NCBI GenBank assembly: GCA_963700145.1
Contig: OY969474.1
Coordinates: 1,888,001 to 1,952,000, forward strand
Direction: 5' to 3'
Origin: an uncultured Acidobacteriota bacterium
GTDB taxonomy: Bacteria; Acidobacteriota; Thermoanaerobaculia; Multivoradales; UBA5704
DNA: 64,000 nt
Shown: piece by piece, positions 11,002 through 35,868 of the stretch
Numbering within the stretch: position 1 is the first letter of the stretch
Layout: every line of letters starts with the position of its first letter
Made by a program: the position numbers and the translations under genes
Notes under the pieces: model-generated
What the model was told of the DNA's origin: nothing
Databases searched by the model: none
Seen by the model: only the letters and a program-made list of their open reading frames with translations

Positions 11002-11004
11002 GGC

Positions 11005-12464: not shown

Positions 12465-12500
12465 TGTCGCGCTCCTCACGTCTGACGCAGAATAGCACAC

Positions 12501-12527: not shown

Positions 12528-12544
12528 ACGGCTCCAGATCGACG

Positions 12545-12893
12545 CACCGCTCCGACGCTGCGTTCGTGCTCGCCGAGGCGGCGCACAAGGGTGCCGACGT
12601 CGCCCCCGCGCTGCCGCACTTCGCGCCTCTGTTGGGCGCCGATGCCAGCGCCCGGTGGGTGCTCGATGCGATCAAACAGGCAGCCTGGAGGGGGGGCCAA
12701 CGTGGCGGTCCTGCTGCCGGAGCTGATCGCACGTCTGAGCGAGCGCAAGGACGTCGACCGAGTCGTCTACGTGCTGCACGCGCTCCAGGAGGACGGGGTC
12801 GACATCTCCGCCGCCTTCGAAGCATTGCGCGCGGTGGCGACACCGGGGAGTCACGCCAGCGCGCTGCTCGAGCGCGCGGGCCAGCAGGTCTAG
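12545..12893 (+). pseudogene. Fragment of a helical (HEAT-like) repeat protein, frameshifted at a G run (~12690)
   Basis: Repeats KGADVAPALPHF / (R)GANVAVLLPEL / DGVDISAAFEAL are split over two frames; no clear start. Confidence 0.4.
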
Positions 12894-12913
12894 ACGCGAC
12901 CGAGGAGGTTGGT

Positions 12914-13065
12914 CCGCGCACGTCTCTGCTGTTCAACGAAAATAGCGGAGGAACCGGTGCTACTTGTAGGGAGATGGTCGGCCTTCCTGGACAAATTTTG
13001 AACCGGTCTCCTTCCTTAAGTCACTGCAAACACTACGCGAGGACCTCGCCAGGGAGGCGGCTTGA
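12914..13065 (+). mobile_element. att-like junction 2: ~68-bp near-copy of 35733..35798 followed by an alternative recombinase C-terminus
   Basis: CCGCGCACGTCTCTGCTGTTCAACGAAAATAGCGGAGGAACCGGTGCTACTTGTAGGGAGATGGTCGG versus CCGCGCACGTCCCTGCTGTTCAACGAGATAGCGGAGGAACCAATGCTACTTGTAGGGAATGGTCGG. Confidence 0.8.
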
Positions 13066-14012
13066 GCGCCCTGGGGGCGCTCGAGCTGCCATTCGACGGA
13101 ACCGCAGAGGAAGCGGGACCGCCACAGTTTCATCCAACACCTGTTGAGCGAGCCCCACGCCGCGGCGGCAGTCTCATCCGCCGAGCGCTCCTCCTCGACC
13201 AGGAGGACGCCTACTCCGCCGGCGAGATCGGCTTCCTCGCACGCGCCTTGGTGCAGGCGACCCTGCCGCACAGCGACCCCAAGTCCAACGAGTTCGTCCG
13301 CCGCAACGGCCATTTGACCCTGTCGATCCTGGCGCCGAGGAACGTCGGCCTGCCGTACGGGCGCTATCCCCGCCTTGTGCTCGCCTACCTCAGCACCGAG
13401 GCAGTGCGGCGCAAGACAAGGCGCATCGAGCTCGACCGGCACTTCTCCCGCTTCTGCGGAGCCCTCGGCATCCCGGCGACCACCGGCCCGCGGGGCTCGC
13501 TGCCCATGCTGCGCGAGCAGCTCCAGCGGCTCTTCGCCTCGACCTTCCAGTGCATCTACCACTGCGAGGGCGAGGCGTGCCATGCCGCTGAGGGATTCTT
13601 GATCGCCGAGAAGCGGGCTCTCTGGTGGGACTCGGGCGACGGCGATTCCGGGAGTGGGTCTTACGTCGAGCTCTCGGAGCGCTTCTTCGTCGAGGCGACC
13701 GAAGCGCCGGTGCCGCTGGACATCCGCGTGCTCCGCGCGCTCCGCTCGCCATTCGAGATCGACCTCTACGTCTGGCTCACCTGGCGGTTCTTCCGCCTGC
13801 GACGACCAGTAACCATCCCCTGGGAGTCGCTGATGCTGCAGTTCGGCTGCAGCTACACGAACCCGCGCCACTTCCGCAAGCGCCTCCTCGACTACCTCCG
13901 CAGCGTCCTGCTCTTCTATCCAGAAGCGCGCCTGGAGGCCCGGGCGACTGGGCTTCTGCTGAAACCATCGCCGACGCACGTACCCCCGCGCGTCCTGCCG
14001 ATGAAACTGTGA
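13062..14012 (+). CDS. repA: Plasmid-type replication protein RepA (RepA_C/IncW-like)
   Basis: LVQATLPHSDP, GLPYGRYPRL, LREQLQRLF, VPLD, DLYVWLTWR, IPWESLMLQFG; GGGAGG RBS before TTG. Confidence 0.85.
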   Translation: MSALGALELPFDGTAEEAGPPQFHPTPVERAPRRGGSLIRRALLLDQEDAYSAGEIGFLARALVQATLPHSDPKSNEFVRRNGHLTLSILAPRNVGLPYGRYPRLVLAYLSTEAVRRKTRRIELDRHFSRFCGALGIPATTGPRGSLPMLREQLQRLFASTFQCIYHCEGEACHAAEGFLIAEKRALWWDSGDGDSGSGSYVELSERFFVEATEAPVPLDIRVLRALRSPFEIDLYVWLTWRFFRLRRPVTIPWESLMLQFGCSYTNPRHFRKRLLDYLRSVLLFYPEARLEARATGLLLKPSPTHVPPRVLPMKL

Positions 14013-14464
14013 CGCTCGAAGGCGTGGCGGCTGGAAGCAGGAGCCGCGAGGCCGCGCTGGCGGCCGCCGTTGGTCTGTAAGTCTCGGTTCCTCAGACACC
14101 CGCCGCCGGGTAAGGAAAACTCGATGGCGCCGCGAGGCCGAGCTCGGACACGTTGCGGCGCAGAGCAGCGTCGGAAGCGGCATAACCCCAGTTGATCAGC
14201 CGCTCCTGGAGAACGCGCGGAAGAGCGGCGACGGCAGCGGAGCGCAGGGGGCGCATCGTAGTGGTGATACGTGCGGGTTGTGAGGGTTTCAGCGCGGCCA
14301 CCGACCAAGTCGAGCCCGGATTGTGCTATCGCGACGAGCGCTGCGCCTCAGCCGACACCGGGAAGCGACTGCTGCGTCGGCTCGCCAGGCGCCGCTCGCC
14401 ACCGACACGCGCACCTGCGCCACCACCTGAACGAGCCGGGTGCGAACAAACGAGTTCCGCGGCG

Positions 14465-17400
14465 CTACACCGTGAGCTCATTCTGCTTCAAGTTCACCAA
14501 CCCCGAGGAGTTCACGACCAGGACCCGGAACCGATGATAGAAGGGGTTGCCGGCGCTGTTCTCCTTGAGAAGGACGCCCGTTCCGAGCGTCGTGTCCTGC
14601 AGCTTTACCTGCATGACCGCCGCATCGCCGACGGAGGCGATCTTCACCCACATTCCGACATCGTTCAGTTTGTAGAGGTGGTAGGTGCCGTTGTACGTCG
14701 TGCGCGGCCAGCTCAGTTGCACGTTCGCGTACTGGAACGGATGCGTGAGCGACAACGGATCAGACGTCATGGTGATCTGCGGAGGTTCGGGATTGACGGT
14801 GTCCGCTACTCTCGCCGTGGCCATCTCCGAAGGCTTCGACGGGATCCTCTCCGGCAGTCCCTGTTCGTTGATGATGCTGCGGAAGGCGAGAACGCGGTAG
14901 TGGATCGGCTGCGCGAACGGAACGTAGCCAAGGTCGGCGAAGTCGTCGAACACCGGATCGCCTAGCATGAACTCCCTCACTTCGGTCATCGTGCGGACGT
15001 TCAACGCATCGTCGGCGTCGAGAGAGCGGTACAGCTTGTAGCTGGTGACGCCTTCGCTCGGCAGGTAACCGCTTAGCAGGAAGTCGACCCGCGGCGTTGC
15101 TCCCGCTCCATCGTCGAGTTGCGCCGTCACCTTGCGGATCACCGGCGCCTCGGGCGGCGCGGCGTTCACCAACTGCACCGGGCCGGTGATCGGGCTGCGC
15201 GCGCTCACCTTCATGGTGCTGCTCAGCTCCACCGCGAAGTAGAAGTAGACGTTGGTCGAGGCGCCGTCGATGGTGTAGTCGGTGATGCGGACCCACCGCG
15301 TGTTCGTGGCGCTGCCGTGGCCGGGATCGCCGTCGTGCATCACGTCGCCGTTGGCGTTCTTCTCGTAGCGCACGGCCATCGGCCACGGATCGGCGTCGTC
15401 CGGTGGGAGGCGCTGGCCGTTGGGGCTGCGCAGCTTCGGCGGGCGGCCTGACGTCTGGAGGGTCTTGTCGTTCAGTTGCTGGTAGATCAGCGGCAGCTCG
15501 GTGATCGGGACGAACGCCTTCTCGACCGCTTCCTGCACCACCGACTTCATCGTCCGCCCGCCGGTTCCCGGCACGACGGCGCTGCTGCCGGGAGGCGTGG
15601 TGTTGTTCAGCGCGAAGGGGAAGACCGGCGGGTCGAGCGACGGATCGGGAATGACGTAGGTGTCGTCGTTGGGGGGAGGAAAGCGAAAGCCGTCCAAGAC
15701 GTACTGGACGAACTCGTCGTTGGCGTCGGTGACGACGTGCACGAGGTCGCTCCACCGCTGCGGCTCGAATGTCTTCTCGAAATCCGACATGCCCTCGAGC
15801 CGTGCCACGATCTCGCGGGCCGTCTTTGGCTCATAGAGCTGATCGATGATCTTGCGGTCATTCGCCTTGTAGAAGACGAGCGCGTACGGATCGTCGACCT
15901 GGACGTCGACGGTGAAAGTCGCCTTGCCGAAGAAGTTGGGCCGGGTGGCGAAGAGCGGTCCGCGGAGCGGCCCCGGCGCCACCGGCTCGCGCAGCTCCTG
16001 CGCCAGGATCACGGCCGGCTTCGACATCCGCGACGTCAGGCTGGCGGCGGTCGCTCGCGAGCGAACCGTGAAGAGTGTCTGCCGCGAGCCCTCGCCGCGA
16101 GCGGGGAGAACGGCGGGCTCGCCGAAGTTGTGGCCGGGCGTGGTGACGTCGGCGGTCAGGTAGACGCGGTACGAGGGATGGAAGTTGACCGCCACGCTGC
16201 CGGTCTGCACCGGAACGTATCCGTCGACCGGAACGAACTGGGTTCCGGCGAGCAGGAACTTCCCGGAAACGGGATCGCGCTGCAGGCCGAGCTCGGCGTC
16301 GTACGCGATCACCTGCAGAGTCGCTCCGCTGTTGTCGACGTTCCACACCCGCAGCACCTTGGTCTTGCCGTTCAGATCCGGCAGCCGAACGATGCCTTCG
16401 CAGAGCTCGACGTCGGGATCGCTGCTGGCGGCGAGCTGCCGATTGGCCAGGGTGATGGTGTAGGCGCCGGAGGGGACCGAGGACGGCCCGCCCGCCGGAA
16501 TCGCCGCGACGACGCCGGGATCGAGGTCGGGAATCGCCACCACCGTCGCCGAGTCGGCGATGCCGCCAACCACGACGCTCCGGCCCTGGCCGTCGTTGTT
16601 GACGATGAACTCCATGAACGGCGGGGAGAACTGCGCCAGCGACACTTCCTTCGTCAGCTTGGTATCCCATACCGCCGGGTTGTCGAGGTTCTCCGCCATC
16701 AGGAAGCGGTCGCCGGCGTGCGGGCTGCTCCACTTTTCGACCGTGCAGAAGGAGTTGTCGTGGTCGGCGTCGACCGACGCCGTGGTGCGGATCTGCTGCA
16801 ACACCAGAGTCGGATTCGGTCCACTGCTGGTGACCGACTCGACCACCCACGACTGCCCGTTTGCCGTCAGGCGGGCGCCGACGTAGCGCTGAACGTCGGC
16901 GGCGGCGATCTCCGGCTGCACGATTTGCGGCGGCTTGGTGCTGGCGATCGGATACGACTTGGTGGTCACCGTCGTGGTGTGCGTCGACGGGTGGTCGGCG
17001 ACCGCCGCGATCTCGCCGCGCACCACCTGTGGCGGGAGCGTGCGGAAATAGAGCTCGACCGTGTCGACGCCGAAGTAGGCGCGGTTCTGGACGTCGTTCC
17101 AGTCGAAGGTCACGCGCAACAGCGTCTGGTCGCCCGCCGGCAGTTGGGCCAGGCGCAGCTGCTCGTCGGCCGAGGTGAAGATGCGCGGCTCCTCCTTCTG
17201 AATGAGCTGCACGGCGAGGTTCGACGGCGGTAGCAGCGTATTGCGCGGCGCAAACACCGTGGCGTCGGTCTGCACCTCGTTCGACGCCCCTGCCGTGCGC
17301 GAGAAGATGTTGATGCTGTAGAGCTGGTAGTGGTGCACTCCCGCGGACCGCTCGCCATGCGTGTAGACCGGATTGCTGCCGCGCTCCGGAATCGGCGCCA

Positions 17401-20245
17401 CTTCCGCGTAGCCGGCTGAATCGAGCCACGCGTCGTTGTGGCTCAGCTCCGGCCGCACGTCGTTGCCCGCTCCGACCGCTCCCGCGCCGTAACGGACGCC
17501 GAAGCCGACCGGTGTCGTTTCTTCGTAGAGGTTGAACTCATCCGCCGTCTGGAAGAACCCCTCCATCGGCATTTCATGCCGGAAGCGCGCGCGGTCGAGA
17601 TTGACGAAGCGGATCTGATCGAAGACGGCGTAGCCGTTGGCATCCGTCAGCGCCGAGGTCGTGCCCTCGCACTCCTCGGGCGGCAGTCCGTAGCTGAGGG
17701 CGATCGCCGGCGGCGGCGGCGGCCGGTGATCGGTGATCCGCACCGGCGGCGTCATGAAGCAATGCCTCACCGTCGACGCCGTCTCGTGCTCGAGCTGCGC
17801 CTCGGTGACGTATTGCATGAGGTAGATGAAGCGCGCCCCGCTGCCGGCGGTCGGGCTCGGATCGATGGTACCGAGGCCCAGCATCCGGGCGACGTGAAAG
17901 TCGAGCGAGACGAAGTTGAGCAGGTCGAGGTAGCTCAGCTCCGTGGTGGAGAGGTTGGTGACCGGGTCGGAGTTGGCGACCACGACGTTGGCGCCGACGG
18001 CGGTCCGGCTGGCGTCGAGATAGGTGATCACGCCCTGTTTCAGGCCGTCCGCCGGCAGCAGCCAGCGGTCGCGATAGCTCTGCGCGTTGACGCGGAACAC
18101 CCCGGGGTCGGAAACCTGCTGGAACTTCGGCCAGAGGTTGTCGACGACGACGTCCGGCGACTCTTCGAGGCGGCGGAAGACGTTGGTGTTGGCGTCCGCG
18201 TTGCCGTCGTCGAGGCTGTAGTCGCCGACCTTCTCCCATTCGCGCCGCGCGTTGGAGGTGTGGAGGAAGTCGTCATACGTAGCGATGTGCAGCCCGGTCG
18301 GAGCGAGACCCGAGTAGTCGAAGCGAACCGAGTCGATGTTCTCGCCGACGATCGAGGCATCGACGGCCGCGGCGAAGGTGCGCCGGCAGCCGATCCTGCG
18401 CGAAGTGTTGTCGAGCGGATCAGGAAGGGTCAGCGCCTCGAGGCGAAAATGCGGCGGACCGGTGGGAGCGCTGACGACCAGGGGGATGGCGACGGAAAAG
18501 GCGAGCTTGCCGATCGCGCGTGCCTCGACGACGCCGCGGTATGCGGCGATGAACTGCCGCGGAGCGGAGTGCGGATCGATCGTCTGCCGGACGGCGTCGT
18601 ACTCGGGGAGGTCGGCAAAGCGGATCGAGACGTCGGTGGTGCGGCCCGCCGACGGAACGAGGTCTTCGTACAGCCACTCCCGGAACGCACCGCTCTCGAA
18701 GAGCGCCGACGGCGGATGGGCGAAGTCGACGTCGACGCCGTAGTCGCTCTTCATCGCCGTCCTGAAGATGCGCACGAAGTCGTCGGCGCGGTTGTACCCG
18801 ATCGTCGCCGCCCACGGCCCGTTCGGCGCGGCGAGGTTCCCTTTCGGGAGGTGCGCCTTGCCCAGGCTGCGGAGCAAATCCCAGCGGAGATGGAAGCCGC
18901 GAACGGTGCGGTCGCTGAAGTCGGAGCCGGCGGCCTGCAGGTAGATGTAGGGCGATTGCACCCGCGCGCCTTCCAGCTCGATGCCGATCCCGGACGGACA
19001 GATCTCCGAGAGGATGGGCGTGACGCTGCGAACCGTCACCCGACGCGAGGTGACCTCCATGGTCACCCGCTCGATCTGGGCCGCCCAGTCCGCCGCGTCG
19101 AAGCGAACCCTCGCTGGCTCGGGCAGTGGGCGATCTCGGGTGACGCAGCTTGCGAGATCGCCGTCGGCGTAGGCGAGCAGCGGCCGGGTGTACGCCTGCG
19201 GCTCGGCGACGACTCCGCAGACGGCGAGGCCGCCGGCCGCGTCGCCGGCGTCCTTGATGTCGATCAGCGCCGTCGATCCGGGCAGCGCCAGCTCTCTCTG
19301 CCAGAGCAGCTCGAGCGACGGATCGAAACAGGCGACGAAGCTGCCGCGCGGCGCGTCGTTCACCGTCGCGGCGAGAAGGATGTTCCCCGCAGAGTTGGTC
19401 GGGCCGCCCGACTTGAGGAGCCGGCGTCCGCCCACCTCGGATTGCGGCCGGAACCTGTACACCTGCCCGGTGACCTCGGTGTCGTCCGGCGTCAGCTCGG
19501 CAACGAAGCTCCTGCGGCCGTCACCCGTTTCACCGGCGATGACGAACTTCGGACCGCTGGCGCCCACCGGAGGGGAGGTGTGAACGATGTCGACCGCCTG
19601 CTGAAACTGGGAATTGCCGATGACCCTCTTCCATGAGAGGTTCAGCTTGTCGTCGAGAGCGACGACGAAGCAGTCCCACGTCCCCCTTCCATTCGAGCCT
19701 CCGGCCAGCACGCAGCCGCCGGCGTACGGAATGAGAGAGTTGAGCTGGTCGTCGCCGCTAGTGTGGATGCTGAGCGCCGCCAGGACCTTGCCCTTCCCGT
19801 CGATCCTCGCCACTTCGACGTCGTCGGTGGTGCCGCGCTCGTTGTACCAGCCGGCGAAGATGTAGGTGTCGCCGCTTCCCCTCACCAGCCGGATGTTGAT
19901 GCGGGTGCGATCGCGCGCGTAGGAGTTCGCCCAGATCACCTCGCCGGCCGGCGTCAGGCGCATCACCAGGGCGTGGCTCTGGCTGACGCTCGTCACCAAC
20001 GAGCCGTGAACCATCAAGTCGCCGTTGGGGCAGCGGACGCCGCTCCAGAAGCGCAGCGGCCGGTTGGCGACGGTGTAGGTCTTCTGCCAGACGGTGCGGC
20101 CGTCCGCATCGATCGACGCCAGGAGCGCGACGGAGTCGGCGAACGTTCCGGCGACGATGAAGCCCTCGCCGGCGGCGTCGGCGGCGATGATGGCTCGATA
20201 CGACGCGTCCTCGCCGAAGGTGAAACCGTTGACGAAGTACGTCAC
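14465..20245 (-). CDS. Giant hypothetical protein (1926 aa): N-terminal beta-propeller-like repeats, then Ig/FnIII-like segments
   Basis: GTG 20245 overlaps the upstream TGA; blade motifs VWQKTY/IWANSY/WKRVIG/LWQREL; linkers PPSNLAV, PPEAPVI, PEPPQI. Confidence 0.85.
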   Translation of the reverse strand: MTYFVNGFTFGEDASYRAIIAADAAGEGFIVAGTFADSVALLASIDADGRTVWQKTYTVANRPLRFWSGVRCPNGDLMVHGSLVTSVSQSHALVMRLTPAGEVIWANSYARDRTRINIRLVRGSGDTYIFAGWYNERGTTDDVEVARIDGKGKVLAALSIHTSGDDQLNSLIPYAGGCVLAGGSNGRGTWDCFVVALDDKLNLSWKRVIGNSQFQQAVDIVHTSPPVGASGPKFVIAGETGDGRRSFVAELTPDDTEVTGQVYRFRPQSEVGGRRLLKSGGPTNSAGNILLAATVNDAPRGSFVACFDPSLELLWQRELALPGSTALIDIKDAGDAAGGLAVCGVVAEPQAYTRPLLAYADGDLASCVTRDRPLPEPARVRFDAADWAAQIERVTMEVTSRRVTVRSVTPILSEICPSGIGIELEGARVQSPYIYLQAAGSDFSDRTVRGFHLRWDLLRSLGKAHLPKGNLAAPNGPWAATIGYNRADDFVRIFRTAMKSDYGVDVDFAHPPSALFESGAFREWLYEDLVPSAGRTTDVSIRFADLPEYDAVRQTIDPHSAPRQFIAAYRGVVEARAIGKLAFSVAIPLVVSAPTGPPHFRLEALTLPDPLDNTSRRIGCRRTFAAAVDASIVGENIDSVRFDYSGLAPTGLHIATYDDFLHTSNARREWEKVGDYSLDDGNADANTNVFRRLEESPDVVVDNLWPKFQQVSDPGVFRVNAQSYRDRWLLPADGLKQGVITYLDASRTAVGANVVVANSDPVTNLSTTELSYLDLLNFVSLDFHVARMLGLGTIDPSPTAGSGARFIYLMQYVTEAQLEHETASTVRHCFMTPPVRITDHRPPPPPAIALSYGLPPEECEGTTSALTDANGYAVFDQIRFVNLDRARFRHEMPMEGFFQTADEFNLYEETTPVGFGVRYGAGAVGAGNDVRPELSHNDAWLDSAGYAEVAPIPERGSNPVYTHGERSAGVHHYQLYSINIFSRTAGASNEVQTDATVFAPRNTLLPPSNLAVQLIQKEEPRIFTSADEQLRLAQLPAGDQTLLRVTFDWNDVQNRAYFGVDTVELYFRTLPPQVVRGEIAAVADHPSTHTTTVTTKSYPIASTKPPQIVQPEIAAADVQRYVGARLTANGQSWVVESVTSSGPNPTLVLQQIRTTASVDADHDNSFCTVEKWSSPHAGDRFLMAENLDNPAVWDTKLTKEVSLAQFSPPFMEFIVNNDGQGRSVVVGGIADSATVVAIPDLDPGVVAAIPAGGPSSVPSGAYTITLANRQLAASSDPDVELCEGIVRLPDLNGKTKVLRVWNVDNSGATLQVIAYDAELGLQRDPVSGKFLLAGTQFVPVDGYVPVQTGSVAVNFHPSYRVYLTADVTTPGHNFGEPAVLPARGEGSRQTLFTVRSRATAASLTSRMSKPAVILAQELREPVAPGPLRGPLFATRPNFFGKATFTVDVQVDDPYALVFYKANDRKIIDQLYEPKTAREIVARLEGMSDFEKTFEPQRWSDLVHVVTDANDEFVQYVLDGFRFPPPNDDTYVIPDPSLDPPVFPFALNNTTPPGSSAVVPGTGGRTMKSVVQEAVEKAFVPITELPLIYQQLNDKTLQTSGRPPKLRSPNGQRLPPDDADPWPMAVRYEKNANGDVMHDGDPGHGSATNTRWVRITDYTIDGASTNVYFYFAVELSSTMKVSARSPITGPVQLVNAAPPEAPVIRKVTAQLDDGAGATPRVDFLLSGYLPSEGVTSYKLYRSLDADDALNVRTMTEVREFMLGDPVFDDFADLGYVPFAQPIHYRVLAFRSIINEQGLPERIPSKPSEMATARVADTVNPEPPQITMTSDPLSLTHPFQYANVQLSWPRTTYNGTYHLYKLNDVGMWVKIASVGDAAVMQVKLQDTTLGTGVLLKENSAGNPFYHRFRVLVVNSSGLVNLKQNELTV

Positions 20246-26200: not shown

Positions 26201-26744
26201 TTGGTGAGAGCCTCGCCGAGCGGGTCGGCGCCGAGCGGATCGACGGGGTGATGGCCGTCTGATAGGCCTCGTTGAGATCGAGGACGAGCTGGTCGAGCCG
26301 GTCGAGCGGACTGGCGCCGGCGACGAAGATGCCGAGGGCACGCTCGAGGAGCTGGCGCTCAGTCAGGCCGGTGGCGGTGAGGGCCAGCTGGTAGAAGTCG
26401 GCCGGCGAGAACGAGAAGGTGGAGAAGTTGAACTGGCGAAGCCAGGCCAGGATGCCCCACTCGTAGCGGAGCGTCACCGGGAACTCCGATCGCCCGCCCT
26501 GATGTCCGGGATTGAGCTCGAGGAAGAGGCCGGTGCCCGGCACCTCGAAGTCGAGCAGCTTCCCGCTGACGATGATCAGGCTGTAGTTCGCGGCGTCGCC
26601 GCGCGGGCTGACGCTGTACTGCAGGTCGCGGAAATAGAGGCCGTCGAAGATCTTCTCGATGCCGTCCTTGACGAAGCTCAGGGCCTCCGGCAGCTTGTCG
26701 GTCGGCACCAGCAGAGAAAGCCGCGGGTAGTAGACGGCGGTCAT
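20242..26744 (-). CDS. Giant beta-strand-rich hypothetical protein (~2167 aa), split by a 1-nt frameshift at 26245-26248
   Basis: ORF 26046..26744 is coherent up to AYQTAIT and continues in the 20242..26049 frame as PVDPLGADPLGEALTKIETT...FLDLVTPRVHATL. Confidence 0.8.
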
Positions 26745-26756
26745 CGGCGCGTCTGG

Positions 26757-29700
26757 CTACAGGCCCGCGAGAGCGCGCCTGATCAGCTCCTCCACCTGAT
26801 CGACGACGGCGGTGATGCCGTTGGTGACCTTCGACGCGAAGGGGATGTGGATGTGGCCGGTCAGCGTCAGGCTGTGGCGCGTCTCGCGCTCTCGCGCGAC
26901 GCGGTAGAAGACCTCGTTGGAGAGAAAGTCTCCGCCGGATCCTTTCACTGCCTCGGCCGTTGGCGTCGCGGCAGGATTCTTCTTGTTGTCGTTGACGTCT
27001 CCCTCGCGCGGGTGAAACTGGGAGGCAGTGGTCAAGGTTCGATAGGACTGGTCGAAAAACACCTTTTGAGAGTGGTCGGGCGGGGAGAGGAAAGGGCCGA
27101 GAACCATCTTTTCGACCGGCAGCGTCGACTCGTAGAAAGGAGCCCACGTCAAGTCGGAGTCGCCGATTTGTTGCGGGATGAGCCGGCGCTCGTTGGCGTT
27201 ATCCCGAGTCGACCATCCCCGCTGTCGTCCCGCCAGGCGTTCCACGTCGTACCCTTCGACAGGGATCTGAGAGTCCAGGCTGACGGTCACGATCATCGCC
27301 GCACACGTCGGGTCGGGCGTCTGTCCCATCAGCCATTTGCCAGCGAGCTTCTCCACCGCGCCGGCGTCGAAGTCGGCGTAGCGCACCGGGAACACGGCCG
27401 ACTCGACATACGCTGTCTTTCCCGATCCGGCGATCGTTGTCCCGTGGAGCGCCAGGGCGACGGCTCCTGAGGGATTTAGCCGGTACTCGAGACCCTCCGG
27501 AACGTAGGGATCGAAGCCGGTCACCAGGACCCGCAGCGAGTCTGCAGGGGCATTGGCAAAGTCGAGGTCGTAGCCGCGCGACCGCTCTTCGAGCGAGACC
27601 AGCAGCGGCGTGGGGTCTTGGGCGGGTTCTTCGGAGAGCGAGCGGCAGAACTCGTGGCTCTTCAGGGCCACCGCCATCCGCAGGCGGGCGTAGTAGAGCG
27701 ATCGCGCCGCTTCGTCCGCGGCGGCGCGGTCATCGTTCGCCAGCCACCGCGCGCGCTTCAAGATCTTGCTCGCCGCCGTGTCGACCAGCGCCTGCAGCGA
27801 CGACTTGGCGTTGGCGTCGGAGGCGGCGACGAGGTTGATGGCGCCGACGAAGCCGTCGACGAGCGCGCGCAGGCTGGGGATGCCGTTGGGGTTGGCCGGC
27901 CGGTAGTCGCGGTCGATGAAGAAGTCCTCGACCGTCCGCGCGATGGTGAAAACGCTCCCCCACGGTGCGTCGGTCAGTAGCACCGGCGAGCCGCTCAGCA
28001 CGATGACCGTATCGGTCCCGTTGAACGTCACCGAGGCCGCCGTATATGGCCCGTCATTGTTTTCCGATCCCGAGATCTCCAGGCTGTTGCCGGCCACGAG
28101 CTCGGAGCGCCAATCGTCGGCGGCGATGGTGATCGAGGAGGTCGCCACGTCGACCGCGTCGATGCGCCGCTGCCGGACCGGCCAGGGATCCGCACCCCGC
28201 GCTTCCTCCCAGTTGCGCCCGTATGGCCCGGGCGGCGGCTCGGCGGCGGCGAAACCGGGCGAGGCGAAGACGCGGCCGTCGACCGAATAGACGTGGATGT
28301 CGGCGGAGGGGAACTCCGACGCAGGCGTGCCGTCGGTGGCCAGACCGCGCACGCCGAGGCGGTAACGGTCGGCGCTGGCACCGCCATTGGTCACGGTGGT
28401 CTTGCCGTCGAGGATCAGGGTGCGGTCGTAGTCCGTCGTCATCGTCGTCGCGCCGAGGCCGCGCAGCGTGGTCAGCTCCGCATCGGTCACGCCGACGAGC
28501 ATCGCGCCGGTCGGCGGGTAACCCTCCTCCGCACTCTGCCGGAGGCTCAGCGTGCGCACCGGCGCATTCGCATCGACCACCACTCCTTGGTCCAGTCCGT
28601 AGAGGCCGAAGAGGCCGCGCTCCTGGAAGAAGCTCGCTGCCGAGCTCACGCCGTCGGGCACACCGCGCACGGGGACGAATTCGGGATCCTCGAAGTCGGG
28701 AGCGGTCGCCATCGCGTACAGCAGCGATCGTGGTGTGGGACCGCTCTGCTGGGCGATGCCGGTGCGCATCATCTGCCGCCAACCCTGAGTGCCCTCGGCA
28801 TCGACGTAGTGGCTCGGCTGCACCGTCGCCCACTTGATGACCGGGTCGCTGACCGCGACCGGCGTCGCCCAGCCATCGGTACGGTCGATCGGGCCGAAGA
28901 TGTTGTCGGTGTAGGTCGCGGTGGGAACGACGCCGGGTTTGGGCGGCGGCGGCGTGGCTGGCGGAAGCACTTCGCGACGGCCGTAGTAGAGCCTCAGCGG
29001 CCAGGCAACGTTGACCTTCGTGGTGGAGAGATTCGGGAAGCGAAGGCCGACCGGCGCCGTCCACGGAGCGGTTCCCAGCTCGTCGCCGCGCAGGAACGGC
29101 CCGCCCGCGGCCGCGGCGAGCAATGGACCGTGCTCGACAAAGAGAACCGGATCGACGTTGTCGTCGCGCCGCAGGCTGACGTGAAGCTCGTTGTGGTCGG
29201 CGTTGGGATCGGCGGCGGCAACGGAGTCGAGGAGCACGATGGGCCAGCCGTCGGTGGCGTAGGCCTGTGCGGTCACTGATGCCGCTGAGGTGCCGGTCTG
29301 GATCTGATGGCCCGATCCGTCGTCGTAGTTGCGGTGGAAGTTGAGCGACCGTCCGTGCTCGCTGCGGACGTCGAGATAGAGACGATGCTGCGTTGCAAAG
29401 TGCGAGACGACGGTGTTGAAGATCTCCTCGCCGTCGAGTGAAGGCCCGCCCGGGACCTCCACCCGGCCACCCTCGTGCAGGTGGAGGCCGTAGAAGGCAG
29501 CGGGATCTAGGAACGCCAGGATCTCGTCCTTCTTCAGCCGCCGCGCCAGATCGTCCGTTTGCATGGCGCCGATGTCGATCACATTGGCGGCACGCCGCGC
29601 ATACCCGAGGTCGGGGAAGTAAGCATTGTCTTCGAGCACGATCTCGAAGCCGAAATCGAAGGCGCCACCGGCGGCGTGGAAGAGGCCGAGCGGAGTGCCC

Positions 29701-32700
29701 TTCGTGACATAGGGAAGCTGCTTCTCGGTGTCGAGCCGGAAGAAGAGGTTCTGCAGCGTGTCGCCGTCGGCCGCGGCTGGGTCGTAGCCGAGAAAGGTCG
29801 ACGAGATCGTCGTCGCCGACGGATTGAGGTCCTTGAAAGCGGTCCACAGGGCGGCGATGAACGCCGAAGCCCCCGCCTCGTCGCGAACGCGCTTTTCGTC
29901 ATTCGTGGAAGAGCCGCCGAGGAATTCGTCAAGCCGCAGCCCGCGATAGATGAAATACCGCACCGGAGGAAAGCCGGCGACCGGCTGGGTGAGAGGCCGC
30001 AGGATGAGGTTCACCGCGACGTTGCTGCCGGCCTGCCGCTGCACCGCCACCACGCCGTCGGTGACGGCGTAGGCCTGCGTATCGTTCGGCGCGTGGAAGA
30101 GAGCCGTGGTTCGGTATTTGGTGGCCGGAGTCCCGTCGACGGGTCCGAAGCCCTGACTCACTGACTGCGTGAGCGAGGCAACGTCGGCAAAGACGAACGA
30201 CGCCGGCTTCGGCTGCGCCGCGGCGGCCGCCTGTCGCGCGCCGCCCGGCTGCGGGGCGACGCTGTAGATGGCGACGGTGTGAGCTTCCGAGGCGACTGGG
30301 AACTCGCGAAATGCGCTGAGGATCTCCGGCTCGAAGATGAGATCGGTGAAGGTCCGGTCGACGGTGAAGTCGAGGTCGAAATGGATGTCGAACTGCTCGC
30401 CGGTGGCCGGGACCTCGGTGCCATCAGGCCGCCGCGCTTCCACCGGCGGCTTGACCGTCGCCCACGGCGTGGCGATGTCCCAACCCCACCCGTTCGCATA
30501 GCGGAAATAGCGGATCTCGTCCGCGCCGGCCCGCTTCTTCGCCGTCACCTTCACCCGCACACGTTCCGTCTCGAAGGTGCCGGCCGTCATTCGCACTTCG
30601 ACGCGGATCGACTTCGTCTTCGCCGTGCCGACTTCGTCGACGTCGAGGTGCCCTTCGGCGGGATCCGCGCCGCCGTTCCTGGTGAAACGGAACTTCGCGA
30701 ACACCAGCTCGCGGAAGGAGATGTTGTTGTTGGTATCCGCAGTCGTGCCCTGGAGAGCTCCGTCGTGGGGCACGACCTCGCCGAGGGCGAAGAGGCGCAT
30801 GGAGCGCGCCGGCTTCGGGAGGTTGGGGCTGTTCGTCGGCGGACGCAGCGCCTCGGGCCACGTGGCGGTGAAGATCTTCGTGCTGTTGTCGGGGTCCGTG
30901 GCGGGTGCCAGCGACGGCACTTCCTCCTCCTTCAGCCGGCGCGTTCCCGCTTCACCGGTGGCGGGATCGAACGCTCCGGGGTTCACCTCGTCGACATCCC
31001 AGTAGTGGTCGAGGTTCAGAAAGCCGGCGGGCATGGGGCGGGCGGCGATTTCCCAGCGGTCGCCCTCCGTGTGCCCGCCGGCCGAGGCGAACACCACGGA
31101 CACGCCGAAGTCGAGCAACTGCGGCGCCCCCGCGGTGATCGCCACGGACGGCGCTTTCGGCGTGCCGTTGAGGAACCATCGGAAGTGGGCGCCGGAGGCC
31201 AGGATCTCGACCGTGTAGCGCGCTCGATCGGCGCCGTTGTAGGTGCCGCGGACCTGGAGATCGTTCACGCCATGGCCGTAGAAGCGGCAGACCGGCGAGC
31301 CGTCGCTCGCGCACAGCAGCACCCGCGCTTGGGTGACCGGCAACGCGCCGGCAAGCGCGGAACGCGCAAACGTTTCCTTCGCGCCGCGGTTGTGGACGCG
31401 CAGGTGGAAATGGCGTTCCGTCAGTGCCCTCGCCTTGACGAGCCAGCGGTCGCCCACCGTGTGTCCGGCGCTGACCGCGAACCGGATGCTCACGCCGTCG
31501 CTGAGCGGTTGCGCCGCGCCCGTGATGGCAACGCCCGTCGCGCCGGCAACGCCGTCGCGGCTCCACTTGAAGGTGTCCGGCGCCTTGGTCTCGATCTCGA
31601 TCGTGAAGGTGATTTCCGCCGCGCTGGTGCAGACACCGGAGACTTCCAGATCGTTCTTGCCGGCACCGACGAAGATCGCCGGATCGACGGTGACCCGGGG
31701 ATGCTGATGGTTGCCGGGATCATCGTAGGTGAGGAGCACGGTGGGAGCGTCGTTGCGGATCCAGATGTCGGGACTCTCGACGTCCTTCGTGCCGCGATTG
31801 GACGATCCGTCGTCCTCGAGAAAATTACGGATCATCAGGTCGCGGTCGTGCTGGTAGCTCTTCGCCGCTTTCACCGCCTCGAGCGCGTCGATCCGCCCGT
31901 AGCCGTAGCCGTAGCTGTACGTGGCGACGAGCCCCACACTCACCGGCTCCCCCATCTCGTGAAGATGGAGAAGAGGATCGATCTCGACTTTCGTCCCGGC
32001 CGTCCCGATGACAGCCCTCGCCTCCGTGTTCTCCTTCTGGACGATCGTTCCGGCAGGATGCTGCGCCTTCAACTTCGTGCCGGCGACGAAGGTCAGCGTG
32101 TTCCCCGCGGCGCTGCCGATCTCATACGGGCCTTCGTGCTGCGCAGGTGAAGCGTGCCGCACGAGAGCGCCGAATGCCTGAGGCGCCGCCAGCCCGGCAC
32201 TGAGCTTCAACTTCACGTCCGCGCCCACGACCCTCTTCGGAGGTATCCCGGACAGCGTTTCGTGTGCGGTAACGGCGGTGATCGTGACCTGCTGACCGCC
32301 GATGGTGATTTCATCGCCCACTCGAAAGCCGTCGACGTTCGCCACGACGACGCTGGTGGCGCCTGCCGGCGCCTTCTCCACCACCACCGTCTCGCGGCGG
32401 CGTCCGACCAGGATCTTGTCGCCGGCGGAGAACCCGGCGGTCGACTCGACGTCCAGCGACAGGGCGTCCAGGTTGCCGACGGTGCGAAGAACGGTTTCCG
32501 CGCCGATCAGCAGCGCCTGACGGGGTTGCAGTTGCGCCGCGACCGCGGCGCTGGCCAGGTGGATGAAGCGCGTCTTCGGCTGAGCTTTCACGCTCAGCTT
32601 GGTCGAGGAGATGCCGCCCAGGATGAGGAGCCCGTTGGTGTCGGCGATCCTCGTCACCGCCTGCGTGTCGCTGTGGACCCAGAGATTGCGCGCGTCGATG

Positions 32701-34667
32701 CCGGTGATCTTGAGATCGATCGGCACGGCCGTCCTGCGCAGGATGTCCCGCACTTCCAACCAGGTCAGGGACGGCTTGGCGGAGATCATCAGTGCCGCCA
32801 CCGCCGCCGCCTGCGGCGTGGCGGCGGAAGTGCCACCGTAGGTCGCGTCATAGCCCGCCTTGCCGGTGATCAGCTCGGCGCTTGCGTGCGCGGAGGTGAG
32901 AGGCTCGTCGAGCATCACCTTGAACGTGCCGGCCGGGTCCTCGCTCTTCGAGACCGCTCGACGCACTTCGGAATTGTCCTCGTCGTCCTTGTCGAGGATC
33001 AGCGCAGGCCTGGGAAGTCCGATGAGCGCGGCGTAGTCGGCGCCGGAGATCTTCAGCTCCTTCTCTCCACCCAAGAGCGGATCGAGGACGACCGCCCGGG
33101 TGTCAGCCGTGCCGGGGAGATCGCCGGAACCGGCGTCGGCGAGTGTTGCTATGCCGCGCAATGCCGGCGGCGAATGCCGGTAGGGGCCGAGGGTAAAGTG
33201 GCTCCGGCTGGGCGCGGCGAAGTCGATGTCCGGCGCGTCCGGAGTCGTCCACGAGCTGTCGGGCATCCGGACCTCGGCGCCGCGATGATCGAGCGACGAC
33301 GCCGCCACCTTCATGACGTTGACGTCCTCACCCCATTCGGATCCGTCCCGCGATTTGCTGTCGTAGTTGTTGGCGGAGACGAAGAACAACGTCCCTCGCC
33401 GGCCCCGCCCGAACATCGAAATATGGCCGAGCGCCTTCTTCAGGGACGGGGACATGGCCGGCAGTGTGTGGCTGCAATTGACGATCGCGGCCCGCAGAAC
33501 TAGCGACGCACCGCCGCCAAGCAAATATGGGAATATTTGCGTGGCTTCATATCCGCCGACACCCTTCTTCCAACCGGGAACGAAGCCGGCGGCGTAAAGA
33601 AAGGCGTGCGCCCACCGCAGATCGGCTGTCTTCGTCCACCGATATGCCGCCACGCGCGTGTTGGCGGCGATGCCGATCGTCCCGTCGGCCTCCCCGGCCG
33701 CCGAAATGAGGCCCGCCACGTTGATCCCATGCGGGTCGTCCACGGCATCGTTGTCGGCCACCATCGGCGCCGACCTCAGGTCGTAGGTGAACACCACCTT
33801 CTGCACCGGGACACCTGCCGGGGTGGTGACGGTGCCTTTGAGCTGCAGATGGTCGACGACACCGCCGCTCGTCTTGATTCCTTCGTCGTGGATCGCCACG
33901 ATCACGAAGGGGTTGCCGTAACTGGCCGACGTCCCATTCGCGTCGAGCTCTGCCCACGCCTCCGCCACCCGCATGAGCGAGTAGTTCCATTGCAGCGGAT
34001 AGAGAAAGTCCTGCGGCTCGACGGCGGTGGTCGTCGGGTCGGCGTGCAGGACGGAGTCGACTCTGCGGATGCCGGGCACCCTCCTGAGCTGTTCCAGCAG
34101 CAGCTCGGGACGATCGGAGGGCTCCTCGACGAGACGGACCAGATAGAGATTCGGCTGCACCGAGTCGCGCAGCTCGACTTTGATGGGGAAATCGGCCAGC
34201 AGCGCTTGCAGGGCCGCGATCGAGATCGGCTCTGCGGTCTCGACGTGCAGGTTGCGCGTCAGGTACAACGGCCGCCCGCCCGCCCACCCGACGAGCGGAC
34301 CGAGGTCCGGACTCTTCTCGGTCTCGCGGGGCGCGAAGGCGCCGGCGCGCGGCGTCAGCTGCCGGAAGTAGACCTTCCGTCCTTCCCGGTAGTAGTAGGA
34401 GTCCCCTTCCCGCCCGAGCATGACGCGCTCCGTCCTCGGGAAGACACGGGCATCGGCTTCGATCGTTTCGGTGAGCAGGCCGGGGGCCTCGACCGTCACC
34501 TGGTAGATCGCAGGCTCGACGTCGAGCTGGTAGCCGAGTAGGCGCTCGTTCCACGTCACCGGCGCCGGGGCGGGGACGCCTTGCCGCTGCAGCGAGACCG
34601 TGGCGTCGCGCACGGGCGCGTTGGCCGCGTCGACGACTTGAACGACGAGCGCACCCTTCTCCGGCAT
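26757..34667 (-). CDS. Giant multidomain protease (2636 aa): S8 subtilase plus C-terminal pyroglutamyl-peptidase-I (C15)-like domain
   Basis: S8 triad motifs VAIHDEG / PHGINVAG / GGTSAATP and YGYGRIDA; C15-like VLVTGFDPY, NPSG, FPVRY, GGDFLSNEVFY, GHIHIP. Confidence 0.9.
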   Translation of the reverse strand: MPEKGALVVQVVDAANAPVRDATVSLQRQGVPAPAPVTWNERLLGYQLDVEPAIYQVTVEAPGLLTETIEADARVFPRTERVMLGREGDSYYYREGRKVYFRQLTPRAGAFAPRETEKSPDLGPLVGWAGGRPLYLTRNLHVETAEPISIAALQALLADFPIKVELRDSVQPNLYLVRLVEEPSDRPELLLEQLRRVPGIRRVDSVLHADPTTTAVEPQDFLYPLQWNYSLMRVAEAWAELDANGTSASYGNPFVIVAIHDEGIKTSGGVVDHLQLKGTVTTPAGVPVQKVVFTYDLRSAPMVADNDAVDDPHGINVAGLISAAGEADGTIGIAANTRVAAYRWTKTADLRWAHAFLYAAGFVPGWKKGVGGYEATQIFPYLLGGGASLVLRAAIVNCSHTLPAMSPSLKKALGHISMFGRGRRGTLFFVSANNYDSKSRDGSEWGEDVNVMKVAASSLDHRGAEVRMPDSSWTTPDAPDIDFAAPSRSHFTLGPYRHSPPALRGIATLADAGSGDLPGTADTRAVVLDPLLGGEKELKISGADYAALIGLPRPALILDKDDEDNSEVRRAVSKSEDPAGTFKVMLDEPLTSAHASAELITGKAGYDATYGGTSAATPQAAAVAALMISAKPSLTWLEVRDILRRTAVPIDLKITGIDARNLWVHSDTQAVTRIADTNGLLILGGISSTKLSVKAQPKTRFIHLASAAVAAQLQPRQALLIGAETVLRTVGNLDALSLDVESTAGFSAGDKILVGRRRETVVVEKAPAGATSVVVANVDGFRVGDEITIGGQQVTITAVTAHETLSGIPPKRVVGADVKLKLSAGLAAPQAFGALVRHASPAQHEGPYEIGSAAGNTLTFVAGTKLKAQHPAGTIVQKENTEARAVIGTAGTKVEIDPLLHLHEMGEPVSVGLVATYSYGYGYGRIDALEAVKAAKSYQHDRDLMIRNFLEDDGSSNRGTKDVESPDIWIRNDAPTVLLTYDDPGNHQHPRVTVDPAIFVGAGKNDLEVSGVCTSAAEITFTIEIETKAPDTFKWSRDGVAGATGVAITGAAQPLSDGVSIRFAVSAGHTVGDRWLVKARALTERHFHLRVHNRGAKETFARSALAGALPVTQARVLLCASDGSPVCRFYGHGVNDLQVRGTYNGADRARYTVEILASGAHFRWFLNGTPKAPSVAITAGAPQLLDFGVSVVFASAGGHTEGDRWEIAARPMPAGFLNLDHYWDVDEVNPGAFDPATGEAGTRRLKEEEVPSLAPATDPDNSTKIFTATWPEALRPPTNSPNLPKPARSMRLFALGEVVPHDGALQGTTADTNNNISFRELVFAKFRFTRNGGADPAEGHLDVDEVGTAKTKSIRVEVRMTAGTFETERVRVKVTAKKRAGADEIRYFRYANGWGWDIATPWATVKPPVEARRPDGTEVPATGEQFDIHFDLDFTVDRTFTDLIFEPEILSAFREFPVASEAHTVAIYSVAPQPGGARQAAAAAQPKPASFVFADVASLTQSVSQGFGPVDGTPATKYRTTALFHAPNDTQAYAVTDGVVAVQRQAGSNVAVNLILRPLTQPVAGFPPVRYFIYRGLRLDEFLGGSSTNDEKRVRDEAGASAFIAALWTAFKDLNPSATTISSTFLGYDPAAADGDTLQNLFFRLDTEKQLPYVTKGTPLGLFHAAGGAFDFGFEIVLEDNAYFPDLGYARRAANVIDIGAMQTDDLARRLKKDEILAFLDPAAFYGLHLHEGGRVEVPGGPSLDGEEIFNTVVSHFATQHRLYLDVRSEHGRSLNFHRNYDDGSGHQIQTGTSAASVTAQAYATDGWPIVLLDSVAAADPNADHNELHVSLRRDDNVDPVLFVEHGPLLAAAAGGPFLRGDELGTAPWTAPVGLRFPNLSTTKVNVAWPLRLYYGRREVLPPATPPPPKPGVVPTATYTDNIFGPIDRTDGWATPVAVSDPVIKWATVQPSHYVDAEGTQGWRQMMRTGIAQQSGPTPRSLLYAMATAPDFEDPEFVPVRGVPDGVSSAASFFQERGLFGLYGLDQGVVVDANAPVRTLSLRQSAEEGYPPTGAMLVGVTDAELTTLRGLGATTMTTDYDRTLILDGKTTVTNGGASADRYRLGVRGLATDGTPASEFPSADIHVYSVDGRVFASPGFAAAEPPPGPYGRNWEEARGADPWPVRQRRIDAVDVATSSITIAADDWRSELVAGNSLEISGSENNDGPYTAASVTFNGTDTVIVLSGSPVLLTDAPWGSVFTIARTVEDFFIDRDYRPANPNGIPSLRALVDGFVGAINLVAASDANAKSSLQALVDTAASKILKRARWLANDDRAAADEAARSLYYARLRMAVALKSHEFCRSLSEEPAQDPTPLLVSLEERSRGYDLDFANAPADSLRVLVTGFDPYVPEGLEYRLNPSGAVALALHGTTIAGSGKTAYVESAVFPVRYADFDAGAVEKLAGKWLMGQTPDPTCAAMIVTVSLDSQIPVEGYDVERLAGRQRGWSTRDNANERRLIPQQIGDSDLTWAPFYESTLPVEKMVLGPFLSPPDHSQKVFFDQSYRTLTTASQFHPREGDVNDNKKNPAATPTAEAVKGSGGDFLSNEVFYRVARERETRHSLTLTGHIHIPFASKVTNGITAVVDQVEELIRRALAGL

Positions 34668-34732
34668 CTATTCCGACCTCGAAGGTAAAACCTAATTTTA
34701 GCGTAGCACAGTGAGCCGCTCGACCGCGGCGG

Positions 34733-34786
34733 CTCGTCGAGCGTCCGCGTCGAGTGGCCGACGGTGAAGAGGGTCAATGGGGCCAC
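34733..34786 (-). pseudogene. 5' fragment of a DUF488-family gene
   Basis: MAPLTLFTVGHSTRTLDE matches the DUF488 N-terminal TIGHS motif; similarity ends after 18 codons. Confidence 0.6.
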
Positions 34787-34811
34787 GGGCGCGGCCTCGG
34801 ACGCGGCCCGA

Positions 34812-35215
34812 TCAATGCAACCAAGGGTCGCGGCGATGGTCGTCGACGACGCGGAACCCGCGCTTGCGCCGTAGCCGCCCCATCCGCTGCCGCAACCACC
34901 ACCCCTGCGTCCGCAACCACCACTCGCGCCCGGCGCGCCGGAAGCCGCCCTGCGTCAGCGTCCCCCACACCACTGCGATGGCCGCGCAGATGCCCAGGAA
35001 GCCCGCCAGGTCGTGCGTCTTGAGGAAGCCGATGAAGGCGATCAGCACCTCGATGGTCAGGAACCACTTCGCACGCACCGGGATGCTCAACATCAACATG
35101 ATCGTCGCGTCGCGATACAACGTCGCAAACGCCGCGATCACGATGACGAACAACATGTGCTGCCCCTGCGCCAACACCAGCGACGCCGGCGAAACCTCCC
35201 AAACTTCCGACGTAC
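34812..35215 (-). pseudogene. 3' fragment of a rhomboid-like membrane protein
   Basis: AFATLYRDATIMLMLSIPVRAKW, hydrophobic helices, RRKRGFRVV...WLH tail; 5' part missing. Confidence 0.55.
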
Positions 35216-35479
35216 GACGACTGCATCTGCCAATTGGACGGATCACTGGCGCGGCGCAGCGAGGACCCCAGGGAATCGCTGGTTCATGCGGCGCTCCACG
35301 ACGGGATGGCTCGTCACCTCGCAGAAGACGTGTTCGCTGACAATCCATTTGCACTGCTCGCGGCGCGCGACTTGATCGATGCAGCGCCAGTGGCCCTTCT
35401 GGGCTACATGCGCGATCTCTCCCAAGACCCCGAGCGTGAAAGACGGTTCCGCGCGGCCATTGCAGCGGACGATGAACGC

Positions 35480-35813
35480 ATCCGGCGCGATCGACCGGCC
35501 GACCTACGAGGCCCAGCTCGACAAGCTCAACGAGCAGCTGGCCTTGGCGCGGCTCCGTGCCGTGGATGCCGAGGTCGAGCAGATCGACGCCGAGGGCATC
35601 CTTGGCTTCGCCGAGCACCTCGCCGCGAACGCCTCTCGCCTCTGGGTGGAGTTCAACCTCCGCCAGAAGCAGCGGTTCCAGACGTTCATCTTCCCCGACG
35701 GCGCGAAATACGCCCATGGCGGGTTTTTGAACCCGCGCACGTCCCTGCTGTTCAACGAGATAGCGGAGGAACCAATGCTACTTGTAGGGAATGGTCGGGG
35801 CGAGAGGATTTGA
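35480..35813 (+). pseudogene. 3' remnant of a large serine recombinase reading into the tRNA
   Basis: Coiled coil IDRPTYEAQLDKLNEQL..., then W....LRQKQRFQTFIFPDG, as in LSR C-termini; ORF ends inside the tRNA antisense; no catalytic domain. Confidence 0.65.
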
Positions 35814-35868
35814 ACCTCCGGCCTCACGGTCCCGAACCGTGCGCTCTACCAAGCTGAGCTACGCCCCG
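35792..35868 (-). tRNA. tRNA-Pro (anticodon CGG)
   Basis: CGGGGCGTAGCTCAGCTTGGTAGAGCGCACGGTTCGGGACCGTGAGGCCGGAGGTTCAAATCCTCTCGCCCCGACCA; full cloverleaf with encoded CCA. Confidence 0.97.

Follow-up and report, generated by a model that had tools for sequence, protein, structure and literature searches.

A large serine recombinase frame that crosses its attachment site at a tRNA-Pro gene end, with a plausible link to repA in one subgroup of elements

The stretch of DNA considered here (the window) comprises 64,000 nucleotides from an uncultured Acidobacteriota bacterium (GenBank assembly GCA_963700145.1, contig OY969474.1, positions 1,888,001 to 1,952,000) and holds, at 12982-35798, the fossil of an integrative plasmid-like element inserted at a tRNA-Pro gene. 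The question raised by this locus is whether integration itself can change the end of a recombinase. The original prediction placed the attachment (att) site inside the 3' end of the recombinase gene, so that excision would exchange the C-terminus of the protein and couple its translation to the replication gene repA. The answer that we consider likely is that the window contains a decayed copy of an element family in which the frame of a large serine recombinase (LSR) crosses the element's own site (attP) at a tRNA 3' end, so that the C-terminal tail is swapped and, in a subgroup using tRNA-Pro, linked to repA.

The sole tRNA called by ARAGORN in the window is tRNA-Pro(CGG), at 35792-35868 on the minus strand, and a plus-strand recombinase frame ending LLVGNGR-GERI stops within it, at the TGA 35811-35813. 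The sequence ATGGTCGG is found at 35791-35798 (site C) and again at 12974-12981 on the plus strand (site B), and seven bases of this shared core are the terminal bases of the tRNA (35792-35798, TGGTCGG on the plus strand). The core ATGGTCGG, or TGGTCGG within it, is the probable crossover region. At site C, which has the form of an attR, alignments show a P arm consisting of the recombinase 3' end followed by the core (35733-35798, plus strand), and the body of the tRNA serves as B' arm. At site B the frame that runs from GGT 12976 reads GRPSWTNFEPVSFLKSLQTLREDLAREAA and stops at the TGA 13063-13065; this tail of 29 codons and a stop (12976-13065, plus strand) contains the P' arm and would form the end of the recombinase in the excised element. 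The TGA overlaps the TTG 13062-13064, the first start codon of a 316-aa RepA_C frame, which is preceded by a Shine-Dalgarno-like GGGAGG at 13052-13057. The coordinates and frames originally given for both junctions are exact, base for base, and the in-frame tail of about 27 residues expected on joining the two ends recurs with the same frame and length in four further elements.

The placing of the core inside a recombinase 3' end was borne out, and the gene proved to be that of an LSR. The last 108 residues of the open reading frame (ORF) 35379-35813, encoded at 35487-35813 on the plus strand, match residues 374-481 of P0003 at 104 of 108 positions (96% identity); P0003 has 481 aa and comprises Resolvase, Recombinase and zinc-ribbon domains. 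The remnant is 79% identical to the intact LSR of a relative in genome G187. The ORF itself has no Pfam match, and no further pieces of the LSR were found elsewhere in the window. In the multiple alignment the remnant begins in the long helices past the zinc ribbon. It therefore lacks the Resolvase catalytic domain with its active-site serine, which is present in G187, in G040 and in a paralogue of the same genome, as well as the Recombinase and zinc beta-ribbon/coiled-coil domains (PF07508 and PF13408 in the relatives). Because residues 1-373 of the LSR are gone, the catalytic, recombinase and zinc-ribbon domains included, the copy in the window cannot excise itself, and no switch can operate there.

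Along with the LSR remnant, the fossil carries repA (13062-14012, plus strand) and, at 14465-34667 on the minus strand, a cargo of four genes recognised from ORFs and Pfam (1945, 1935, 2636 and 232 aa). The 2636-aa product matches subtilase S8 and pyroglutamyl-peptidase C15, two of the three very large cargo genes have no Pfam match at an E-value of 0.01, and an Atlas look-up of the 1945-aa protein gave no lead (best score 0.80). This cargo is not common to the intact relative G187. Pfam searches of 12982-35798 revealed no type IV secretion genes and no coupling protein. A T-arm-like motif also occurs about 65-70 nt upstream of the core, in the same orientation and within the recombinase coding sequence (35722-35731). 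It reads TTTTTGAACC in the window and TTTCGAACACCC in the tRNA-Ala type, is found as well in locus L015 and in the paralogue of the same genome, and encodes a conserved FLNPRT or FRTP block. Judging from its sequence, this motif could serve as an additional binding site or be left over from the growth of the gene end.

The two ends of the element share more than the core. A direct repeat of about 65 nt links 12914-12981 to 35733-35798; the copies are about 90% alike, with two 1-nt insertions in the left one. Such a repeat flanking an island beside a tRNA gene is what a classical tyrosine integrase would leave by duplicating the 3' part of its target, and small tyrosine recombinase genes do occur in the intact relatives. 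Only the last seven bases of the repeat are tRNA, however, and the remainder is the 3' end of the recombinase gene. In the window's element no tyrosine recombinase gene was detected with Pfam, and the two ends of the G187 element have only the 8-bp core TGGTCGGC in common. The left junction accordingly bears a recombinase 3'-end remnant rather than plain chromosome (12851-12973, plus strand, clear from 12914 and weak from 12851), and tblastn against residues 433-464 of the G187 LSR matches it at an E-value of 0.06.

The arms of the sites point in the same direction. Counting begins at the T of TGG, which complements the CCA end of the tRNA. The T-arm motif TT(T/C)GAAC then starts at base 18 in all seven tRNA arms, and the element-side arms of tRNA-Pro, -Ala and -Glu specificity have it from base 23 in 16 of 17 cases; the single exception starts at base 22 and belongs to a decayed older junction (site A). 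In the window the motif TTTGAAC lies at 35809-35815 (plus strand, site C, base 18) and its T-arm-like counterpart in the P' arm of site B at 12997-13003 (plus strand, base 23). A multiple alignment of the arms opens a 5-base gap at this shift. In serine integrases the motif bound by the zinc-ribbon domain is described as 5 bp nearer the centre in attB, the chromosomal site, than in attP (Rutherford et al. 2013, PMC3783163). The tRNA and element arms thus show both the short core and the 5-bp motif shift that characterise the att sites of serine integrases, and the shift of the T-arm motif therefore fits this class of enzyme. With the repeat being mostly recombinase coding sequence and the shift being of the serine type, the tyrosine-integrase reading was rejected, and we give it almost no credence.

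Intact relatives place this fossil within a family. Loci were collected with the paralogue of the same genome against 61 genomes and with the window's remnant against 300 genomes of the order. The 59 loci examined, chosen by protein similarity and not by tRNA content, reduce to 41 distinct places when duplicates are dropped along with loci that do not match the C-terminal part of the LSR. In 37 of these 41 the LSR frame ends in or against the 3' end of a tRNA on the opposite strand, the targets being Ala, Glu and Pro tRNAs plus Arg or Leu. The four exceptions are two long forms without a tRNA nearby (L015 and L105), one tRNA-like end where no tRNA is called (L106) and one frame that stops 51 nt before the tRNA (L125). 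The intact relatives carry Resolvase, Recombinase and Zn_ribbon_recom domains, and metagenome relatives of lower G+C content show the same layout at tRNA-Glu(TTC). A profile search of 1.84 billion representatives returned 10,128 proteins at an E-value of 1e-30 or better; among the best 150 of these, an antisense T-arm pattern (for example GFEP or GIEP) is found in the last 32 residues of 105, an approximate figure given that the pattern was made by hand and post hoc. The members of the family are integrative plasmid-like elements with a RepA_C gene, the larger ones having a full type IV conjugation set, and the LSR is their last gene, reading towards the tRNA with its frame across the core.

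One such larger member lies in the same genome. This 78-kb element (G000:C1:4486898-4564852), apparently intact and conjugative, is inserted at tRNA-Ala(CGC), where its intact 532-aa LSR reads into that tRNA's 3' end, and a RepA paralogue (74% identical) is encoded 78 kb upstream of that LSR. Its conjugation and partition genes comprise a T4SS-DNA_transf coupling protein, T2SSE (VirB11-like), TrbL, CagX, TrbI and ParA/ParB. Further genes are ArdC, SSB and AbiE, together with CBASS-like (SAVED, HORMA, AAA) and BREX-like (PglZ, BrxA, methylase) ones. At 100 nt past the left core of this element lies a piece of 21 nt from the tRNA-Ala 3' end, which hints from its sequence at an earlier event at that site.

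The 300 genomes of the order contain one intact member of the tRNA-Pro type, in G187, whose LSR of 481 aa is found at tRNA-Pro(GGG), and no further intact tRNA-Pro-type recombinases were found in 401 genomes sampled from the phylum at an E-value of 1e-28. A metagenome scan for such recombinases returned only relatives at 37-45% identity, and a pattern scan for their junctions added one scar without repA. G187 and the paralogue of the same genome have in common an end module placed before the recombinase (L131 4808-9509 and L169 14169-18907), which comprises genes for a Ser/Thr kinase and a small tyrosine recombinase (about 200 aa) along with one or two further small genes, of which G187 has one that is BlaI-like. 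A directionality factor may be hidden among these small genes.

If the frame truly crosses the core, the tail should behave as coding sequence. Five tRNA-Pro-type junctions with repA were available (the window, G004, G055, G045 and G187), and each has a tail of 29 codons free of insertions and deletions. The ratio of nonsynonymous to synonymous differences per site (pN/pS), computed pairwise outside the 30 bases nearest the core, is 0.16-0.68 between lineages in nine of the ten pairs, and substitutions cluster in the third base of the codon (as in 4, 0 and 12 changes for the first, second and third base). In the tenth pair the window is compared with G004; the two differ by six bases only and the ratio is 1.73, and neither of these copies has a working recombinase. 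The other two frames of the tail contain stops in six of eight pair-frame tests, and the two that can be read (+1 frame) give ratios of 0.97 and 3.67. With pS of 0.47-0.80 the elements are near synonymous saturation, and the comparison shows the tail to be real coding sequence under purifying selection. In the tRNA-Ala/Glu type the tail is likewise conserved (for example WLREVAALRQAA).

These figures also bear on the idea that chance alone, in G+C-rich DNA full of long open frames, produced both the in-frame tail and the TTGA overlap. Many long spurious ORFs do exist in all frames of the window, but the same frame, length and overlap are kept in five of five elements despite pS of 0.47-0.80, the other frames are closed, and contiguous long-form proteins exist. 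One of the latter is P0004, a protein of 508 aa that ends FEPVALIADLARLRQDLYGRAA, its relatives P0001-P0003 having 481 aa and ending in tRNA-coded residues. The other is the contiguous 503-aa recombinase of L015, which has no tRNA nearby and ends LRDRIAA. Chance is contradicted by the substitution pattern of the tail together with the 508-aa P0004, and we regard it as very improbable. The claim that the integrated and excised recombinases would differ at their C-termini was supported by the same two long forms.

The continuity of the reading frame across the core is seen in the window, in G187 and in the paralogue of the same genome, so that attP lies inside an ORF in each. Moreover, metagenome run X4 contains one contig that goes from the recombinase end through the core to the element-side arm, a second that goes from the last 10 bases of the recombinase end through the tail into repA, and a third that represents the tRNA-joined form. 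A tandem array such as the one described below for the window could yield the same picture. Taken with the empty site in genome G003 and a chimeric junction in G004, the joined and tRNA-linked forms of run X4 may be indirect traces of recombination.

The protein ends themselves suggest that the tail may carry a signal. Of the 18 readable tails, which have 27-32 residues and many of which are mutually related, 15 end in Ala-Ala. The same end is found in 12 of the 45 representatives that lack a tRNA-coded end (at least eight of these are truncated), where composition predicts 0.8%. By analogy with the mycobacteriophage system discussed below, the free-form recombinase may be short-lived and the integrated form stable.

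The link between the tail and repA needs to be weighed separately. The repA product belongs to the RepA_C family, matching Pfam PF04796 at an E-value of 6.7e-30 and 105.1 bits, where the cut-off is 26, over positions 2-165 of the 181 in the profile, and its relatives are 72-79% identical. The stop codon of the tail and the start codon of repA share bases in each of the five tRNA-Pro-type elements: the overlap reads TTGA in the window and in G004, ATGA in G055 and G045 and GTGA in G187. That it is kept through three different start codons argues for selection on it. The intact relative that the original prediction had called for, with both the tail frame and the overlap, thus exists in G187. 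The overlap is not family-wide, however, since none of the nine tRNA-Ala/Glu-type junctions read has it; a tenth (L072) was left out of this count, its tail being frameshifted. In that type the tail ends at a clear distance from repA. Measurements on six junctions place the nearest in-frame start of repA at least 21 nt downstream and the most upstream one at 83-165 nt; the spacer in G040 is about 105 nt, those of L134 and L135 are by eye about 85 and 135 nt, and repA has a GGAGGGG motif of its own. In L015, moreover, an ATGA overlap leads into a Cys-rich ORF of 95 aa and not into repA. With the overlap absent from the nine junctions and from L015, coupling to repA is a trait of the subgroup, and it is there that the claimed overlap holds.

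A co-directional ORF of the window has its end at 12893, 170 nt before repA, and between that end and repA there is no plus-strand terminator-like site, the only one present being on the minus strand. A scan for sigma-70-type promoters upstream of repA returned no sites in the window or in G187, a method that is blunt for G+C-rich genomes, and no iterons or tandem repeats were found near repA. In several tRNA-Ala/Glu-type elements (L085, L069, L071, L067 and L084) the ribosome binding site of repA is immediately preceded by a short hairpin whose pairing is kept through different sequences (CCGCTGC..GCAGCGG, CGCTGC..GCAGCG and CCGCC..GGCGG). From this pattern of pairing, the hairpin may be a regulatory RNA or DNA element.

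The most serious alternative accepts the whole geometry and denies it any regulatory meaning: attP would simply overlap the end of a gene, both protein forms would act alike, and repA would have its own promoter and ribosome binding site in either state. The Shine-Dalgarno-like motif directly upstream of repA fits this, as do the tens of bases or more, with a separate GGAGGGG, between the tail stop and repA in the tRNA-Ala/Glu type. The ends of LSRs past the zinc ribbon and coiled coil are variable in the alignment, which also suits a dispensable tail, and the tail is modelled at low confidence. Purifying selection and a fixed tail length are unexpected for meaningless read-through, on the other hand, and so are an overlap kept with three different start codons and Ala-Ala ends in 12 of 45 proteins against an expectation of 0.8%. 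We give this alternative a substantial chance, somewhat short of even.

Several of the observations count against the favoured interpretation, a swapped tail linked to repA in the tRNA-Pro subgroup. The tRNA-Pro-type elements number only five, the window and G004 among them being closely related. The absence of the stop/start overlap from the tRNA-Ala/Glu type, with its longer distances to repA, and the Cys-rich ORF of L015 belong here, as does the Ala-Ala end, which is far from universal (15 of 18 tails and 12 of 45 representatives). An AlphaFold2 model of P0004 from a 20-row alignment has a mean predicted local distance difference test (pLDDT) score of 75.8, yet the tail (helix 489-507) and linker (469-493) are below 50 and no docking can be read from them. 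The window, furthermore, is without a clean attL bearing the native B arm. Finally, the tRNA-Pro(GGG) is near der in 10 of 11 loci of relatives (L149-L159), and in those worked through it lies 0.6-1.2 kb downstream on the strand of der, whereas in G187:C2 (L130, L131) it is on the strand opposite to der with the element between them. Since the tRNA orientation is opposite to that of the relatives, the left junction of G187 is not a simple insertion scar, and the arrangement suggests an inversion tied to the element.

The lack of a clean attL can be understood from the history of the locus. In G003, of the same genus, some 30 nt separate the tRNA from where a conserved gene starts that in the window ends near 9535, and for this reason 9536-35791 is taken as inserted DNA, including the older parts at 9536-12973 that are missing from this empty site. 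Within these older parts alignments reveal site A (about 11310-11443, plus strand), a decayed recombinase-end remnant with the core ATGGTCGG at 11353-11360 and a P' arm that has suffered a 1-nt deletion. Its tail remnant, FEPIPLLKALDELRKGLREAAG at 11375-11443, is far from site B in DNA and similar in peptide. The window locus thus appears, from these remnants, to be a tandem array of three elements or junctions, the two older ones reduced to scraps. The left end does contain the core, as an att junction should, but it is no simple attL: it is attP-like because the gene end of a neighbouring, mostly deleted element remains there. Integration of a plasmid multimer or cointegrate may be one way in which such an array arose.

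The same tRNA is an insertion hot spot, with different DNA in each of G001, G002 and G004. In G004 the left junction is chimeric, its left part being as in site A and its right part as in site B. Recombination between the cores of the two sites may have produced it, and homologous exchange in the 19 bases that they share would give the same result. The stretch 9536-12973 also holds a gene of the 3-dmu-9_3-mt family, a repeat of about 360 bp that is present in many copies, two genes, one with a STAS domain and one zeta-toxin-like, and small ORFs. The repeat (10099-10458), searched in the four genomes of the same genus, has many sites in G001, G003 and G004 on both strands and none in G002. It contains 21-nt tandem units (GGAACCTCCTGCGCGACGCCG) and from its sequence looks like a miniature mobile or REP-like (repetitive extragenic palindromic) repeat. 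The STAS-domain gene (10450-11278, minus strand) has a small upstream ORF whose N-terminus resembles a ribbon-helix-helix antitoxin, and the zeta-toxin/AAA_33-like gene lies at 11492-12121, also on the minus strand.

The gene layout of the family, and the mechanism that we propose on it, can be stated as follows. In the free circle the LSR frame runs on for about 27 codons past attP, coding for a conserved tail, probably a helix, whose last residues are mostly Ala-Ala, and in the tRNA-Pro subgroup the stop of this tail sits on the repA start codon. Integration moves the tail and repA to the far end of the element, and the LSR then ends with four tRNA-coded residues (GERI). The two recombinase isoforms would in this way signal whether the element is free or integrated. 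Within the tRNA-Pro subgroup, translation of repA would be coupled to that of the LSR only in the circle, with the replicon down while the element is integrated; such a repA switch is plausible for this subgroup only.

Parts of this scheme have precedents. In Tn916 and ICEclc the joined ends place a promoter or transcript before the genes of the other end, so that expression of some genes has to await excision. The joint in those elements is non-coding and links the ends by transcription, whereas in the present family it is crossed by a coding frame, which would make the link translational. The myxophage Mx8 targets the 3' end of a tRNA gene. Its attP is inside the integrase gene and integration gives that gene a new 3' end (intP to intX), with altered properties of the protein (PMC6070905). 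Mx8 thus resembles the present family in having attP within the integrase coding sequence and a prophage form with a new C-terminus. The Mx8 integrase is, however, a tyrosine recombinase of a phage, whereas the enzyme here is an LSR of plasmid-like or conjugative elements whose displaced tail abuts a replication gene.

In mycobacteriophage BPs and its relatives, whose immunity depends on integration, attP is also within an ORF, and integration removes a 33-residue C-terminal extension with an ssrA-like tag; changing the penultimate Ala stabilises the protein, and the integrase too has a C-terminal proteolysis signal (PMC4557955). A removable extension at an attP inside an ORF is shared with the elements described here, whose tails of 27-32 residues mostly end in Ala-Ala. 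In BPs it is the repressor gene that is split and the integrase is of the tyrosine type, whereas here the integrase itself is split and its degradation is hypothetical.

The frames of the phage serine integrases (A118/LI, Bxb1 and phiC31) are not known to cross attP. These enzymes are like the present LSRs in their domain set, short core, lack of long identity between attP and attB and 5-bp motif shift, as described for them (PMC3783163), and differ in that their targets are protein genes or intergenic sites and not tRNA 3' ends. A survey of 2014 stated that no serine integrase was known to have a tRNA gene as its target (PMC4383910). A preprint on tycheposons mentions an LSR in 27 of 937 elements (10.1101/2020.12.28.424599), which may be a precedent for tRNA targeting. 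In the literature covered, which did not extend to the large recombinase-mining studies and their supplements, no description was found of a serine integrase frame that crosses attP at a tRNA end. The principle of attP within a gene is therefore known from Mx8 and BPs, and the enzyme class and att logic are those of the phage serine integrases; what sets the present elements apart is the combination of a serine integrase, a tRNA 3'-end target, a frame that crosses its own attP and a replication gene immediately behind.

A wider formulation can be offered only tentatively, and we hold it to be rather doubtful. It proposes that a large LSR clade spanning several phyla targets the last bases of tRNA genes with conjugative or plasmid-like elements and keeps its own stop past attP. 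The state of the element would be written in a C-terminal Ala-Ala helix, possibly a ClpXP-type degron that is lost on integration, and the tRNA-Pro subgroup would couple repA to it, giving a built-in sensor of excision. If the finding is true, serine integrases commonly target tRNA 3' ends, a role that island-finding rules have assumed for tyrosine integrases only, and the odd ends that gene callers give these recombinases, overlapping tRNA genes, are explained. The elements would supply natural attP/attB pairs with tRNA targets for serine-integrase tools. They would also represent a third version of the trick by which integration edits a protein, in this case with the integrase of conjugative elements as the edited protein and a replication gene linked to it.

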